A stretch of 36,416 nucleotides of DNA from a virus. Under the pieces are notes generated by a model. It was not told the DNA's origin. It did not search any database and was given only the letters and a program-made list of their open reading frames with translations. Both the position numbers and the translations under genes were made by a program. Below are positions 3,877-12,126 of the stretch, piece after piece. How positions within the stretch are numbered: the stretch's first letter is position 1; each line of letters starts with the position of its first letter. The DNA lies in the UHGV virus genome UHGV-1512937; one strand, given 5' to 3'.

Positions 3877-5043
3877 TTAAACCCCTTTGACAACGTCAGC
3901 GTTGACCTGTGGAACCCCGATTTCAGCGGCCAGATTCATGGCGGCTATCACCAGGTTACTGACGGCCAGCGGATACAACAGGCTGACCATATTTTTACGA
4001 TGACTTCCCGGATTGCTCAGGCGGGCACGTATGGCATCCACTGCACTGGCGTCCATAATGTCCGTCAGTTGTTTACCTGCCCGTTGCAGTTTGAACGTCA
4101 GAAACTCTTCAAGGTTATTGTCCAGAGGCAGAAGTTCGACCACCTCACAGCGCTGAACGACTTCACGGACTTCCATATTGCGTTCAGACAGTTTTGTCGC
4201 CAGTTCCGGCTGGCCAATCAGCACGATGGACAGCAGTTTTTTGAAACCGGACTCCAGCTCAAAAAAGCGTTTGAGGTGTTTCAGTGTCGGAATGGGCAGA
4301 CTGTGGGCCTCCTCAATCACCAGAACGTGGCTGAACCCCGCCTGGCTGCTGTCTTTCAGGACGCGATGCAACTGGCGAAAGCGGGCGTCCTGACTGCGTC
4401 TGATGCTTTCCAGTGGTGCGATGGTACTGATAATGGCTTCGGCAATAGCTGCTGCCTTCAGGGTTTTCCCTTTCACATCGTTGTCTTCCATAGCGATGAT
4501 GTATGGCTCGATAACAATTACCGGCGCATTCTCGCGGTTGATACGTTCAGTCAGGTCGCGGCGCAGCGTGGATTTACCCGCACCGGACTCACCGATGACG
4601 GCCATAAACCCACCATGACGGGCTGTCTGGTACAACGCCTCACGCACGTAGCGAATGTCCGGGGTGGTGAACACATCATCAGAACCCTGCATGGCTTCGT
4701 CGGCGAACGGGTCACGGAAAAGACCAAACGCTTTTTTGGTTGCCGGGAATAACACCTGTTTTTTGAGTAACATATTCTCTTCCTCACTGAGGCTCGTTTT
4801 ATCTGTGGTACCCGCTGTACGGGGAGTGGCCGCGCCCTGTACAGCATCAAAACTCTTCGCTGTATCAATCCCCTGACTTTCCAACCAGGACGCAAGACGC
4901 CGGCGCACTTCTCCGGGGCTGGTGCGGGGCCACGCGTTATGATTCACAATCTGGGCCAGCGTGGCCTCAGAAACATCGACAGCTCTCGCCACCACCGCCT
5001 GTGGAATACGGGCCTCTTTCAGTTGCTGCTTCAGTACCAGCAT
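3877..5043 (-). CDS. transposition ATPase / target DNA activator (MuB-like AAA+ protein)
   Basis: Walker A GESGAGKST and Walker B VLVIEEAH in the translation; sits immediately downstream of the transposase. Start set at the internal ATG (MLVLKQQLKE) preceded by GAGGAGG rather than the ORF-track start at 5070. Confidence 0.8.
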   Translation of the reverse strand: MLVLKQQLKEARIPQAVVARAVDVSEATLAQIVNHNAWPRTSPGEVRRRLASWLESQGIDTAKSFDAVQGAATPRTAGTTDKTSLSEEENMLLKKQVLFPATKKAFGLFRDPFADEAMQGSDDVFTTPDIRYVREALYQTARHGGFMAVIGESGAGKSTLRRDLTERINRENAPVIVIEPYIIAMEDNDVKGKTLKAAAIAEAIISTIAPLESIRRSQDARFRQLHRVLKDSSQAGFSHVLVIEEAHSLPIPTLKHLKRFFELESGFKKLLSIVLIGQPELATKLSERNMEVREVVQRCEVVELLPLDNNLEEFLTFKLQRAGKQLTDIMDASAVDAIRARLSNPGSHRKNMVSLLYPLAVSNLVIAAMNLAAEIGVPQVNADVVKGV

Positions 5044-5053
5044 GTTTCCCTCC

Positions 5054-6823
5054 TCAGTTGCCGTTAACAATGCTGATAACGCTGCTGCGGGCCGGCGTGG
5101 TCAGCGTGGCCATTACTTCATCCAGTGCGGCTTCCGGTACGCCGTCCGGGTACTGTGCCGTTAACTGGCGGTAATGTTCCGGCGTCCAGGTAAGGCCGTC
5201 GGCGCTGAACTTATCGCGCAGGGCTTTCGCGGCCTCCACATGAGTCATGGGACGTTGTTCAGTGCGCGGTCTGCGTACATCAGAGACCTGACCGCGCTTC
5301 GGTATACAGGCCGGAAGTGTGGCGTCATCAATATGTTTATACGGGTCAAGCCGCCCGCCGAACGGCAGCGCCTTCGCCTTGCGTGCGGCAGCTGCATCTG
5401 CGGCGTTGTCTGTACCGGTGACCAGCGCTTCGGTTTCTTTTGCCGCCGTCTGTGCCGGTGTTTCCGGCAGGGCTTTGTAACTTTCGCCAAATACCGCCGC
5501 GCCTTCAGCAAAGCCAAACTCGTTCTTTCTGACCTCTTCGACCAGGAAGAACGTCTCGTGGCCGTCCTCACCGGTCAGAACCACCTGTGCCACATCGCTG
5601 CGCCATGGGTTACGGGTAATCATCAGTTTTTCACCAACCAGTACGCCCGGTACCGTTGATACGTCAAATTCAGTGCCCCGGAACGAGACACGAAGTTTTG
5701 GCGTGACTTTGCGGAGTTCTGGTGTCGCCACAGCCAGTTCACGGCATACCTCAACGGAAGGCGCTTTTTTCAGCTGCTCAGCAGTAATCTTCAGCCAGAT
5801 ATCCGTGCGGGTTTTACCGTGGCGGCTGTGAACAGCTGTTGCGTTAAAGTGGCTACGCCATTTCGCGGCCAGCGCGTTGAGTTCTTCCAGACTGTGAACC
5901 GGCCGGAATTTCAGACCCGGCTCCAGCTTGCGTTCGATAATGTCACGCGCCTTTTCCACCTGTCCGGTGGCGCGGGCGTTATGCGGCTTGTGCGCTATCA
6001 GGTCGATGCCCAGTGAGCGGCACATGTTTTTCGTCATACCCGCGGTGTTTGCCGAGCCGGGGTCGAGATAGAGTATTTTCGGCACGCCGTGCAGCACGTC
6101 TGCGCCGCCACGCTCCTGCATGGCGTTGATAAGCACAGAACACAGGTTCTCACCGGATTCCGCACCCGTCACATACTCAACGTAAATCCAGCCGCTGGCA
6201 TGGTCGGTAATCTCGTAACTCCACACGCGGTCACTGGCGATACGGGCAAGGTTAGCGGGTTTATTCTTGTAGAACTTCGCGCTGTCCATCACCTGCAGCC
6301 CTTTGTGTCCATTGCTCAGGTAGTAAAGCGTGCAGAGCGAGGCATCAATCTGCCAGACGTGATTGGGATGCAGACTGGCCACTTCGGTATGCGGCGCAGG
6401 GGCATCCAGTTGTTCCGGGTGCAGGCCATAGTTACGCAAGGCACGACTGATGGCATCTTCGGACAACGGGAAAAACTCACCGGTGGTTTCATCTGTTCTG
6501 CCTGCGGAGATAAAGCCGTTAGCCCGCAGGGTTTCCACTGCATCTGCGATGGAATAGAGACGCTTACCGTTCTTGCGGGTGGCCTCACGCAGTGTGGCAG
6601 ATATCAGCGCGGCTTCGTCGCGGGTCAGGGCGCTGCGCCCGGCATCGGCGCGTTTTTTGCGTTTATCAGTCACAGATACCTCCTTCAGCCTGCGCAGCAG
6701 AGTGGCGCGGGACATGCCAAGTTCAGCACAGGCAGCGTCGTATATTGCACCGCGTTTACCATGCCCCGCGTCACGTGCCGCGCGGGCGACATAAACCAGT
6801 CGTTCAGTCAGGGCAGCATTCAT
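5054..6823 (-). CDS. DDE transposase, integrase-core (rve) fold, of the BcepMu/Tn552-like type
   Basis: 589 aa; candidate catalytic triad in WQIDAS, ITDHASGW and GQVEKA with spacing typical of retroviral-integrase-fold transposases; GGAGG upstream of the ATG. Much shorter than, and not alignable by eye to, canonical Mu MuA. Confidence 0.85.
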   Translation of the reverse strand: MNAALTERLVYVARAARDAGHGKRGAIYDAACAELGMSRATLLRRLKEVSVTDKRKKRADAGRSALTRDEAALISATLREATRKNGKRLYSIADAVETLRANGFISAGRTDETTGEFFPLSEDAISRALRNYGLHPEQLDAPAPHTEVASLHPNHVWQIDASLCTLYYLSNGHKGLQVMDSAKFYKNKPANLARIASDRVWSYEITDHASGWIYVEYVTGAESGENLCSVLINAMQERGGADVLHGVPKILYLDPGSANTAGMTKNMCRSLGIDLIAHKPHNARATGQVEKARDIIERKLEPGLKFRPVHSLEELNALAAKWRSHFNATAVHSRHGKTRTDIWLKITAEQLKKAPSVEVCRELAVATPELRKVTPKLRVSFRGTEFDVSTVPGVLVGEKLMITRNPWRSDVAQVVLTGEDGHETFFLVEEVRKNEFGFAEGAAVFGESYKALPETPAQTAAKETEALVTGTDNAADAAAARKAKALPFGGRLDPYKHIDDATLPACIPKRGQVSDVRRPRTEQRPMTHVEAAKALRDKFSADGLTWTPEHYRQLTAQYPDGVPEAALDEVMATLTTPARSSVISIVNGN

Positions 6824-8298: not shown

Positions 8299-8384
8299 TG
8301 TTGTCTCCTTTGTTGATGCAATGATGTTTGTTTTATATGTGATAGATTATGAGAACCATTGTTCTCATTGTCAATGAGGTTTAT
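8299..8384. promoter_or_regulatory. divergent early/repressor control region with a 6-4-6 inverted repeat (GAGAAC CATT GTTCTC, 8351-8366); candidate operator
   Basis: AT-rich 86-bp interval between the Ner-like gene and the preferred repressor start; inverted repeat read directly from the sequence. No promoter hexamers were matched. Confidence 0.35.
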
Positions 8385-8810
8385 GTGAATTTTGATTCTC
8401 TTTGCGCGTCGCGGTTCAAAGCTGAGCGTTCGCGGTTATCACTCAAGCAGGCTGAAGTAGCAGCCCTTTGTGGCGTTTCAAGAGAAATGTGGGGGAAATA
8501 TGAACGAGGGGTTGCAGTTCCCGGAGGTGAGTTACTTGCAGCCTTTGCAAGAATTGGGGCCAACGTACAGTTCATTCTTACTGGGGAATCATCAGGTATA
8601 ACTTTATCACGTGATGAAATGGAGTTACTTCAGCACTACCGGCAAGCACCGTTACAAGTCAAAGGTTCAGTTTTGTCGGCATTGACGACTGGCTCCTCCA
8701 GAGAACGGGCGGAACAGGTTATTCATGGAGATGTTCTGGGGAATGTTATCAAAGGTAACGTAACCATAGGAACAGGTGGAATAATGAACAAAAATACAAA
8801 GAGAAAATGA
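8385..8810 (+). CDS. XRE-family HTH repressor (putative prophage lysogeny repressor)
   Basis: HTH LSLKQAEVAALCGVSREMWGKYERG near the N-terminus; GTG at 8385 has GAGG 5 nt upstream, while the in-frame ATG at 8349 lacks an RBS; divergent from the early operon. Confidence 0.6.
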   Translation: MNFDSLCASRFKAERSRLSLKQAEVAALCGVSREMWGKYERGVAVPGGELLAAFARIGANVQFILTGESSGITLSRDEMELLQHYRQAPLQVKGSVLSALTTGSSRERAEQVIHGDVLGNVIKGNVTIGTGGIMNKNTKRK

Positions 8811-9793
8811 GTAAAGAGAAGCAAACAGTTAACGGAGATGTGGGTAACGTTGTCAGCGGTGATGTTACCATTCATAACTATTCTGCTGACATACTTCCCT
8901 CTGCCCAGCAACCAATTTCGTTGCTGCAAAAACGCGATTTACACAGATTGATGGATGAATTGGTTGATCTGGGGGAAAGTAAGCGCGAACTATGGATGAC
9001 GATCCACACGAAACTTAATACCAAAACAGTTAATGAAATGACTGCGGCTGATTATCATGGTGCGGTTGAGATCCTCCAGAGATATGCACAACAGATCCAG
9101 AATATGAAGGACTGTAATCTTCTGGTCAGCAAAATAATGGTGCTTACTGACCCTAGGTATCGTCTTGACCGTGACAGATACTGTCTGAAGCATTTCGGTA
9201 CAACCCATCTTAAAGGCCTGGACAAAGAGCAGTTGCAGGCTGTGTTTGGTTATTTTGATGATCTGCTGAATATTCGTGATGAGAGTAAAACTCTATCACC
9301 TCCATCGGACAGCGGGGCAAAATCAGTCGCGACTGTACCAACCAGAAGCCGGAAGCCTCATGTAGTAGTGTTGGGGGGAGCGTTAGTTCTTGTCGCAATA
9401 TTTTTCGTGGGAATGATTGTGTTCGCTGGTAAATGGGGAAATGCTAAAGCAGTAGCATCTACTGAAACCAGCGTTTTTAACATTAAAACCAACGACAAAA
9501 TAATAGAAGATTCCATCCCAGCATTACGCAGCATGTTTCCAGGGTTAAATAAGTACTCAGATGATTTCCATTCGGTTTCAAGCTACAAGCAAAAATCGGG
9601 CTGGCATACCCTTAAATTCACGGTGTCTACACAGGCAATAATACCTGAATCTTATGGTGTTAAAGGGAAAACTTGTTACATCAACATAAACCCCGATGGT
9701 CGTTATGCCCGTGTTTTGACCGCCCCATGTAGAGCTCTATTACTTGACCAACAAAACACTCCAGATAGTAAATATCGTTATATTTTGAAATAG
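8807..9793 (+). CDS. bitopic membrane protein of unknown function (accessory 'moron' gene A)
   Basis: 328 aa; ATG overlaps the repressor stop (ATGA at 8807-8810); single predicted TM helix (HVVVLGGALVLVAIFFVGMIVFAG) separating a ~185 aa N-terminal domain from a ~120 aa C-terminal domain; visibly AT-richer than flanking phage genes. Confidence 0.6.
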   Translation: MSKEKQTVNGDVGNVVSGDVTIHNYSADILPSAQQPISLLQKRDLHRLMDELVDLGESKRELWMTIHTKLNTKTVNEMTAADYHGAVEILQRYAQQIQNMKDCNLLVSKIMVLTDPRYRLDRDRYCLKHFGTTHLKGLDKEQLQAVFGYFDDLLNIRDESKTLSPPSDSGAKSVATVPTRSRKPHVVVLGGALVLVAIFFVGMIVFAGKWGNAKAVASTETSVFNIKTNDKIIEDSIPALRSMFPGLNKYSDDFHSVSSYKQKSGWHTLKFTVSTQAIIPESYGVKGKTCYININPDGRYARVLTAPCRALLLDQQNTPDSKYRYILK

Positions 9794-9813: not shown

Positions 9814-10425
9814 ATGGGGCTAATTAAACGATATAGAACAGATTATCCGAACCAAGTACATCAACTTTCTGTTGCTGTTTCAAAGCATTATTATGCGGGA
9901 GTTGATGGATTGCTTAAGTACCAGAAAAAACCATTTGATATAAAACTTAGCAATGCAAGTAAAACTGGAAAAGATCATTTACTAGTCTATTCGTTACGCG
10001 ATCACTACAGTGGTTTGTTTTATATAGAATTGGCATTTCTTTCTACACCACAACCTATAACAGCTTTTTTGGGAAGGGCATGGAGGCCAAAGGAAGATAA
10101 CGTGTTACAGGGTCTTCCTGATATGCTGATGATCCCCAAAACTGTAGAAGATGAGTTCCCTAACGTATGTAATGCCGTTTATAACCAAGGAGTTGATCTT
10201 TTAAAAGTAACCAGCGGTTTTCAGAGTGGAGGGCTTATCGCCATACGAGCGGTAGAGGAAGATCTTAAATTCTACACAAATACTCCTATAGCACGAGTTC
10301 GTGAGGTTGCGGTTAAAACATGCAGATACAATGCTAATGATATCGCCCGAACCAATAAAGAAACAAAGCAAGAGATGTGGTTACGAAACGTCGGTCAGAT
10401 AGATATACCTTCTCCAGATTTTTGA
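9814..10425 (+). CDS. soluble protein of unknown function (accessory 'moron' gene B)
   Basis: 203 aa ORF 20 nt downstream of gene A on the same strand; AT-rich; no recognisable motif. Confidence 0.55.
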   Translation: MGLIKRYRTDYPNQVHQLSVAVSKHYYAGVDGLLKYQKKPFDIKLSNASKTGKDHLLVYSLRDHYSGLFYIELAFLSTPQPITAFLGRAWRPKEDNVLQGLPDMLMIPKTVEDEFPNVCNAVYNQGVDLLKVTSGFQSGGLIAIRAVEEDLKFYTNTPIARVREVAVKTCRYNANDIARTNKETKQEMWLRNVGQIDIPSPDF

Positions 10426-10687
10426 AACCTGAAATCACGGTGTCGACGGTTCATTCTGACGCATCATTTATTCTCGTCAGTTGCCTCATATTCGTGCGTG
10501 CTAGGAAACATCGGCCAGAATATGTCTGGCATGGCGGCGTTTACAACCAATCCATGGAGCGATGGGGAATGTCTGCATTTTCATAATCTGTAACCCTTTT
10601 ATAATTATAAAAAATATGGCAGGCTAGTCTGGTCTCGCGAGACTGACTGAACCTCGGTCGGCTCACAGTGCATTCCTGTGGGGCGAT

Positions 10688-10719
10688 GACCAGCCCGGAG
10701 TTCGGGTACCGGGCTGGTC
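10688..10719. other. perfect 11-bp-stem hairpin (GACCAGCCCGG / CCGGGCTGGTC, 10-nt loop); candidate terminator or structured RNA
   Basis: Inverted repeat read directly from the sequence, followed by GTTCTTTC; lies in a ~400-bp non-coding gap; a 12-bp palindrome GTCTCGCGAGAC sits at 10632-10643. Confidence 0.4.
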
Positions 10720-10834
10720 GTTCTTTCACTGTCAGAGTTCAGAGTGAAGTTTTGAGATACATGATTTCTATTAACGCGATTTACTGGATGCATTACCTAC
10801 GTGCAGTGTTTGTTCGATAAGGATTGTTTTCTGA

Positions 10835-11410
10835 ATGGGAACGTATTACACACTTGATTCCGCTAGTCGTCTGCCTTCGCCTTGTCATGTAATTACCGGA
10901 AAATACGAGCCTGAAATGCCAGAACTGGCCGCTTTTCTTCATCAGATGTATCCCAATGGCCTTTCGAGTCACGGGTATAACTATCTCTATAACCCCGGCC
11001 CTAAAATGGAAGATGACAGTGGAATCAGCAGAAGTCTGCTGGTCGGTCTGGTGTTTGAGTTAGTTCGCCGTAGCCATTTTCCTGATAAACCTTCCCGCTA
11101 TCAGTCACTGTTTGCCTGTCAGCATCTGAGTGAAGTCAGGAAGTTCAGGGAATTACTGGCTGATGAGAGAGGCGAAGACGAAATAAGAACGGCACCGATA
11201 TATGAAGTCATCACAAATGAGCAGGTGCATCGCGGAGATATGAGGTTATTGAACAGTGATTGCCCGGTGCTGGAACTGTATCACCGTGCTTGGCTTTACT
11301 GGTCGGGTGAAGCAGCCCCAGTTAAGACTGGTGAGGACGAACCGTTCTGGGAACTGCTGATTCCGCTTCCAGTATTCGTTGGTCGAAGGATAACTGAATC
11401 GCAGGATTAG
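10835..11410 (+). CDS. hypothetical protein
   Basis: 191 aa ORF with AAGGA upstream of the ATG; its 3' end overlaps a convergent minus-strand ORF by 89 bp. Confidence 0.4.
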   Translation: MGTYYTLDSASRLPSPCHVITGKYEPEMPELAAFLHQMYPNGLSSHGYNYLYNPGPKMEDDSGISRSLLVGLVFELVRRSHFPDKPSRYQSLFACQHLSEVRKFRELLADERGEDEIRTAPIYEVITNEQVHRGDMRLLNSDCPVLELYHRAWLYWSGEAAPVKTGEDEPFWELLIPLPVFVGRRITESQD

Positions 11411-11645
11411 GTGCGGTTTTATATCGTGATGTCGCCGCCACATCGCCAATTAGCATGACGTTGTTTTCTCCGCTGGCGAAATGACTTCTTCTCTCTTCAA
11501 GTGCAACCAGAACGTTTTTCAGCTCTATAATCGCTTCGGTTGGACAACATGCATCCAAGCTTAGCGTGTAAGTTTTATTCTGCTCTCCGATTCTGCTCCC
11601 AAAGAGGAACCCTTTTTTAATACCAGACTGTTTCGGTTCAGTCAT
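11322..11645 (-). CDS. hypothetical protein with strong RBS
   Basis: Internal ATG at 11645 (MTEPKQSGIKKGFLFG...) is preceded by GGGGAGG at optimal spacing; ~107 aa; divergent from the late operon. Confidence 0.5.
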   Translation of the reverse strand: MTEPKQSGIKKGFLFGSRIGEQNKTYTLSLDACCPTEAIIELKNVLVALEERRSHFASGENNVMLIGDVAATSRYKTAPNPAIQLSFDQRILEAESAVPRTVRPHQS

Positions 11646-11775
11646 TGTGCTTGCCTCCCCTATGTTTTGTGTGCGACCATTCTGGTCGCTTCCCTCTGCG
11701 AACACTTATAACGCGCTTTAAAATCCGTATCCCGCCACATTTGTGATGCTGTCTCCACCAAACAAGGAGACACAC

Positions 11776-12126
11776 ATGAAAAGCCTGAAAAAATTCATTC
11801 CCCCTGTTAAAAAACCTCGCCTCAGCGGCTGGCTGCTGACCTCAGTGCTGTTGCTGGGCACCATCGCTCTGGTCTCGCCACAGCAGTTGCCTGTTGTGAT
11901 CTACAAGCTGGCACTCATCACGCTGGCAGCAGTGCTGGGTTACTGGCTTGACCGTTCGCTCTTCCCCAAAGCCCGTCCCGGTCAGTACCTGAAACATGAA
12001 GACAGGCTGATGGCTGAAGGGCGTTTCCCTGTGCAGACCGGCCTTCACCTTGTATTTTCTGCTGCGTTAATCCGCCGTGCACTGATTGTTGCAGCGGTCT
12101 GTCTGGCTGTGGCAACAGGACTGTGA
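11776..12126 (+). CDS. putative holin / small membrane lysis protein
   Basis: ATG at 11776 preceded by AAGGAGA; ~116 aa with hydrophobic helices (LSGWLLTSVLLLGTIALV, LALITLAAVLGYWL, IVAAVCLAVATGL); immediately upstream of the transglycosylase gene. Confidence 0.5.
   Translation: MKSLKKFIPPVKKPRLSGWLLTSVLLLGTIALVSPQQLPVVIYKLALITLAAVLGYWLDRSLFPKARPGQYLKHEDRLMAEGRFPVQTGLHLVFSAALIRRALIVAAVCLAVATGL

Follow-up and report, generated by a model that had tools for sequence, protein, structure and literature searches.

The DNA analysed here (the window: the whole stretch of 36,416 nucleotides of the virus genome UHGV-1512937) is a Mu-like, BcepMu-type prophage of E. coli. Its early genes lie on the minus strand and encode, besides Mor, the proteins GemA and Gam, a B-like ATPase, the transposase, a DUF3102 protein and an HTH protein. 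The plus strand carries, in this order, an HTH repressor-like gene, a Flk-like gene, a gene for a 203-aa protein and a gene of the DUF2441 family (Table 1). The Flk-like product is weakly similar at its N-terminus to Flk, a regulator of flagella, and is predicted to have a membrane segment. The DUF2441 gene is met tail to tail by a minus-strand ORF, the product of which is called Y below, and the frame that contains Y stays open across 11322-11705; beyond the Y start codon, on the plus strand, follow the holin gene (ATG at 11776), an SLT endolysin gene and the late genes. The two ORFs, the GGGGAGG sequence in front of the minus-strand one and the extent of their overlap had been described exactly in the original prediction.

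Table 1. Genes and sequence features of the locus, with positions in the window
Feature	Position	Strand or side	Remarks
Mor	259-648	minus	early genes
HTH repressor-like gene	8349-8810	plus	
Flk-like accessory gene	8807-9793	repressor side	328 aa, matches phrog_10002
203-aa accessory gene	9814-10425	repressor side	no family match
DUF2441 upstream region	10504-10834	plus	conserved; presumed functional
DUF2441 / BC2332-like gene	10835-11410	plus	191 aa, ATG start, ART-type fold
Y ORF	11645-11322	minus	107 aa from ATG at 11645
Y core, codons 1-76	11418-11645	minus	conserved; terminates in motif IG.V.ATSRYK
Y tail, 31 codons and stop	11322-11417	minus	lineage-specific; source of overlap
3' overlap of DUF2441 and Y ORFs	11322-11410	both	89 bp
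Y Shine-Dalgarno GGGGAGG	11655-11661 (reverse complement)	minus	8 nt before ATG
Y-holin divergent control region	11646-11775		nearly invariant; putative promoter

The locus is also present in the Klebsiella phage KP12 (90% identity over the region, both ORFs intact) and in 33 complete E. coli genomes (coverage of at least 80%). The KP12 record annotates only the plus ORF of the pair, and RefSeq names a "DUF2441 domain-containing protein" and a "putative holin" in the 33 genomes and leaves Y unannotated.

Products of the two convergent genes

The product of the plus-strand gene scores 31.8 bits on the Pfam family DUF2441 (PF10386; E=1.7e-7, gathering score 25 bits) and matches phrog_5663 among the PHROGs (2e-65). 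PF10386 was recognized in all 27 homologues found (27/27), the lowest identity being 33%. The AlphaFold model, which is confident (pLDDT 89.5), depicts a globular alpha/beta protein with the same fold as the founding structure 2aua, the ART core fold being present. Pfam has assigned DUF2441 to the ART clan (PMC7955679), and 2aua has been reported to match a template of the catalytic site of diphtheria toxin (PMC3024214). Conservation of six polar residues (E75, R78, S87, R88, D135, and Y155) extends to 2aua; H46 and E124 are conserved within the enterobacterial clade, and E124 aligns with a lysine in 2aua. Among the conserved residues, neither an H-Y-E nor an R-S-E catalytic motif of the canonical kind could be made out. 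The protein of known structure, BC2332 of Bacillus cereus, is the founder of Pfam DUF2441 and of the SCOP 'BC2332-like' ART family; its identity to the window protein is only ~20%, E124 is not conserved in it, and it has neither a known function nor a known partner. Our literature search found no functional study for DUF2441, PF10386, BC2332 or 2AUA. The differential-expression table of PMC9867438 includes STM14_RS06850, a Salmonella Typhimurium gene named for a DUF2441 domain-containing protein, among the transcripts that change modestly in a yhjC mutant; a member of the family is therefore expressed in uninduced cells.

The C-terminal end of the DUF2441 protein, through the overlap, is according to the model a structural part of the protein: the overlap encodes the strands 172-177 and 180-185, both of which belong to the fold, and the residues invariant among the 27 homologues include E173, L175, P177, L178, and P179, all within the overlap. 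Codons 1-160 have a pN/pS of 0.10. Homologues of the plus-strand ORF ending before the overlap, which would have spoken against the original prediction, were not seen; this ORF always reaches its C-terminus with the five invariant residues, and the gene that ends before the overlap in other Y lineages is the minus-strand one. In Erwinia tracheiphila (L020, 4239-6027) an insertion of ~1.2 kb splits DUF2441 into two pieces (residues 154-191 at 4239-4352, residues 1-155 at 5563-6027) and leaves Y intact. Two loci of insect symbionts (L005 and L023) hold decayed or truncated copies.

Y has 16 homologues, and an exhaustive profile search of 1.84 billion proteins recovered a family of 19 cluster representatives; judged by sequence, Y is the founder of a tiny, previously unnamed family. 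It matched nothing in Pfam, PHROGs, NCBIfam or PADLOC (Pfam and PADLOC at E<=0.1), and a sequence-profile search of the PDB returned nothing below E=0.05. A fold search with its model, which is poor (pLDDT 54), gave no match. Viral contigs searched with the proteins P0045 and P0057 gave no match either. The homology and structure searches that had been proposed for both products thus yielded a family and an ART-type fold for DUF2441 and no match for Y, and the statement that neither product resembles a Mu function agrees with the lack of any such match in Pfam, PHROGs and NCBIfam. The position of Y after mor in some phages had suggested a Mor/C-type activator; this candidate was rejected, there being no match to Pfam Mor (PF08765).

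The sequence of the Y core carries the signature of a protein-coding gene. In six E. coli-type loci, pN/pS over codons 1-76 is 0.30 in its own frame and 0.9-2.0 in the other frames, with the exception of the antisense frame that shares third positions with Y, which scores 0.32 but is not open. The start codon and the ribosome-binding site of Y are conserved: GGGGAGG is kept in 10/11 aligned type A loci carrying Y, and L006 has AGAGGAGG. Stand-alone relatives of Y (71-85 aa) stop 1-6 residues past the motif IG.V.ATSRYK. The Y core is under purifying selection as a protein, and both ORFs are genuine protein-coding genes.

A mosaic Y gene was observed in Enterobacter cloacae (L002 5001-5252). Its residues 1-29 are identical to the type A form of KP12/L001 and the rest corresponds to a second Y subtype (like P0051 and P0055), a subtype that pairs with DUF2441 in L037, L038, and L042. 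The mosaic gene itself adjoins a gene of 258 aa, with IS3-type transposases nearby.

The overlap and the flanking control regions

The 89-bp overlap is a product of the Y tail, which is missing in four Y clades and in most Y relatives. The Y core terminates 7 nt beyond the stop codon of DUF2441, and the overlap exists because no stop codon occurs in this 7-nt gap; with no stop just past the core, translation of Y continues on the strand opposite the 3' end of DUF2441. When DUF2441 was resampled synonymously, a stop-free antisense tail of at least 31 codons arose in 13% of the trials (P=0.13); the length of the Y tail is within chance. Among the 19 ungapped codons compared in the overlap, the DUF2441 frame shows 2 nonsynonymous and 28 synonymous changes, and the Y frame 24 nonsynonymous and 0 synonymous changes. 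As far as the substitutions tell, the tail evolves without protein-level constraint, and it is probably disordered (AF2 models it at pLDDT <50).

The spacing between the two genes varies by clade, with overlaps of 107, 89, 86, 80, 77, and 11 bp (the 11-bp overlap only in one clade) and gaps of 4, 8, 9, and 20 bp, the gaps occurring in four clades. What is conserved is therefore that the two genes are neighbours and converge; the ORF overlap is not, and it looks like an incidental, neutral by-product of a lost stop codon. The convergent overlapping pair of the original prediction thus stands as far as linkage is concerned (25/37 loci, r=0.83, see below), but the 89 bp do not stand as a conserved feature (overlaps of up to 107 bp, gaps of up to 20 bp).

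The region between Y and the holin gene (11646-11775) is nearly invariant across 11 type A loci in an alignment of 12 loci, and the flanking genes differ by 10-25%. It contains the perfect dyad GCGACCAttcTGGTCGC at 11673-11689, the sole occurrence of this sequence in the window, TTATAA/TAAAAT boxes at 11706-11724, and a hairpin, GTCTCC (11751-11756)-N9-GGAGAC (11766-11771), which covers the holin Shine-Dalgarno sequence. A promoter scan found no sigma-70 consensus promoter within it. By its sequence features, this region is probably the promoter of the late or lysis genes, with a site for an activator and a hairpin that controls translation.

Type A loci share ~82% identity over the region 10504-10834 upstream of DUF2441, and this holds also when the gene in front of the region is another one (a dam methylase gene in KP12 and in other E. 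coli). The promoter scan located a sigma-70-like promoter at 10578-10605 (10/12 matches). A 14-bp hairpin at ~10684-10721 is followed by a weak T-tract and could be an attenuator or a terminator of the repressor-side operon; for the whole DUF2441 leader, folding gave z=-1.98. In the other phage type, Y starts ~40-60 bp after mor, and the search for a promoter motif shared upstream of Y by the two phage types detected weak similarity, nothing more. Scanning and folding gave neither a convincing intrinsic terminator nor an unusually stable structure at the gene junctions (z -1.8 to +0.8), and Rfam and tRNA scans of 10300-11900 gave no credible RNA family. Since the gaps are no longer than 20 bp and a convincing terminator is lacking, the 3' ends of the DUF2441 and Y mRNAs must overlap in every clade, and transcription of either gene should therefore depress the other. 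The placement of the control regions suggests that Y is made in lytic development and DUF2441 independently of it.

Linkage of DUF2441 and Y across loci

A census of 37 IMG/VR viral loci, retrieved by DUF2441 alignment, revealed a Y-like ORF in convergent orientation directly 3' of DUF2441 in 25 loci, 19 of them with strong and six with remote similarity. All 19 loci with a DUF2441 identity of at least 59% carry Y. In the six remote loci, where DUF2441 identity is 37-38%, the small ORF is a remote Y homologue (hhalign 89%, E=2e-6), and Y homologues in the same position reach as low as ~21% identity. The 12 most distant viral DUF2441 loci are without Y. An initial hypothesis drawn from L002, L006, and L011 had taken Y for a conserved core gene of the phage and DUF2441 for cargo that can be exchanged; it was demoted after this census.

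The pair was found in seven clades and in no fewer than four genomic contexts, and it is convergent in every locus examined. In the first context it adjoins the holin/SLT lysis genes (the window, L001, and L013-L020), relatives of the window being found in Klebsiella, Apirhabdus, Buttiauxella, and Erwinia. In the second, the pair follows gemA-mor with Y in the same direction as mor (L005, L009, L021, and L022), at the prophage end that adjoins host envZ/ompR/greB in Arsenophonus, Symbiopectobacterium, and Pantoea symbionts. The third places it beside an Xre-like gene (L026) and the fourth in a phage that carries a LexA-like repressor (L027). In Salmonella (L024) the Y core is fused to another domain, as the C-terminal part of a protein of 243 aa. 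From the sequences of these loci, a tail-to-tail two-gene cassette is conserved in Enterobacterales prophages. In pairwise comparisons the identities of DUF2441 and of Y rise and fall together (r=0.83, Mantel p<=2e-4, 25 unique pairs), a co-divergence that simple linkage would be expected to produce as well.

Either gene can be found without the other, which speaks against an effector-antagonist reading of the pair. In L006/L007 and L002-L004 another gene converges on Y, and DUF2441 without Y is also found in L011/L012 and L008.

Salmonella BcepMu-like prophages hold a modular gene family in the slot upstream of the holin gene (234 proteins of 168-370 aa; L011 4627-4923, L024 4001-4732, and P0060-P0181). 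Its N-terminal domain, a unit of ~98 residues with a Walker-A-like GPTGSGKS, is constant, and its C-terminal modules are highly variable, the Y core being one of them.

Interpretation and comparison with known systems

We lean slightly towards reading the pair as a mobile two-gene accessory cassette of prophages, in which an ART-like effector and a small partner or antagonist would be transcribed convergently. Such a cassette would be an accessory (moron) module: DUF2441 would act as an NAD-using or toxin-like effector, expressed from its own promoter on the repressor side, and Y would be the partner that neutralises or controls it. Y would be transcribed from the opposite direction, in one phage type from the end of the gemA-mor early operon and in the window from the invariant region common to the lysis promoter, and convergent transcription would add reciprocal expression of the two genes. 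The toxin/antitoxin-like relation raised in the original prediction gains plausibility because DUF2441 is modelled with an ART-type fold. A bolder version, which we regard as possible but rather doubtful, is that the pair represents a new convergent prophage toxin-antitoxin or anti-phage defence system on an uncharacterised ART branch, with an effector in the lysogen and an opposing gene in the lytic phase. Lytic transcription of Y would then shut the effector down, through colliding transcription or through pairing of antisense RNA, and Y might also be a protein inhibitor, the prophage being spared its own weapon.

The idea that the two genes are independent neighbours, with Y as a regulatory or early gene of the phage, DUF2441 as an unrelated moron in a cargo hot spot and nothing but linkage between them, appears unlikely to us. 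It draws on the N-terminal 29 residues of Y and the control region, which are almost unchanged beside other neighbours (L006/L007 and L002-L004), on the modular family of the Salmonella slot with its variable C-termini, only some members of which include Y, and on L016, a clear recombinant with its breakpoint exactly at the end of the Y core. However, the same convergent position of Y recurs in 25/37 DUF2441 loci, the pair persists at 37-38% DUF2441 identity and is found in non-Mu contexts that have neither holin nor mor (L026 and L027), and the Y family is tiny and occurs almost only beside DUF2441. Little credence can be given, by analogy with other phage enzymes, to DUF2441 as a counter-defence or host-takeover ADP-ribosyltransferase with Y as its chaperone, specificity factor or timing regulator; in the window the gene belongs to the accessory region on the repressor side and points the same way as the repressor-like gene, a placement typical of morons expressed during lysogeny.

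A function of the overlap itself, in which the shared 89 bp would be kept for type I-like antisense pairing of the mRNAs or for a protein function of the Y tail, would be in keeping with the overlaps of 77-107 bp in the type A clades and type B and with the missing terminator between the genes. We nevertheless consider it improbable, given the gaps of 4-20 bp in four clades and the overlap of 11 bp in another, the changes there that are almost all silent for DUF2441 and all amino-acid-changing for Y, a tail that is predicted to be disordered and no longer than chance allows, and the purifying selection on Y as a protein, which does not fit a non-coding antisense RNA. That one of the two ORFs is spurious, as the original prediction had offered as an alternative, is almost certainly wrong. 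The annotation of DUF2441 and the holin alone in KP12 and the 33 E. coli RefSeq genomes would agree with it, but the selection is frame-specific, the start codon and ribosome-binding site of Y are conserved, homologues of ~21% identity lie in the same position, and the Y core is contained in fusion proteins.

The favoured effector-antagonist reading has parallels of similar logic in the ART-fold toxin-antitoxin or immunity pairs DarT-DarG, ParT-ParS, MbcT-MbcA, RES-Xre, and Tre/Tri. The known ART toxin-antitoxin pairs are co-directional operons; the DUF2441-Y pair, in contrast, is convergent, Y is neither a macrodomain nor an Xre/ParS-type protein, and in DUF2441, unlike in the ART-fold toxins, a catalytic motif is not identifiable. 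The models of PADLOC-DB v2.0.0 gave no match for DUF2441 or Y at E<=0.1. As in type II toxin-antitoxin systems, two adjacent genes are co-inherited, but they do not form the co-directional bicistronic operon of that type. Type I systems have a non-coding antisense antitoxin and a small hydrophobic or membrane peptide, whereas Y is protein-coding and DUF2441 is a soluble, enzyme-like protein. Among type I loci, txpA/RatA and bsrG/SR4 of B. subtilis have convergent, 3'-overlapping prophage transcripts, and DUF2441-Y resembles them in its tail-to-tail arrangement, in its location in a prophage accessory region and in its overlapping 3' transcript ends, but differs in that its ORF overlap is variable. 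The phage ADP-ribosyltransferases Alt, ModA, and ModB of T4 and AcrIF11 are similar to DUF2441 at the fold level only, and we know of no counterpart among them of the repressor-side location or of the conserved convergent partner.

DUF2441 is a branch of the ART proteins that has been structurally solved (2aua crystal structure, 2005) and has no known function. The analysis shows that DUF2441 has, in many Enterobacterales prophages, a specific small partner gene, which RefSeq annotation missed in the 33 E. coli genomes checked that have the locus. The locus also calls for caution, since the striking 89-bp overlap appears to be a neutral by-product and the meaningful signal is the conserved adjacency. 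The pairing of Y with DUF2441 offers a testable handle on the function of the DUF2441 family, and the pair is a candidate for a convergent effector-antagonist architecture among ART-based conflict systems.
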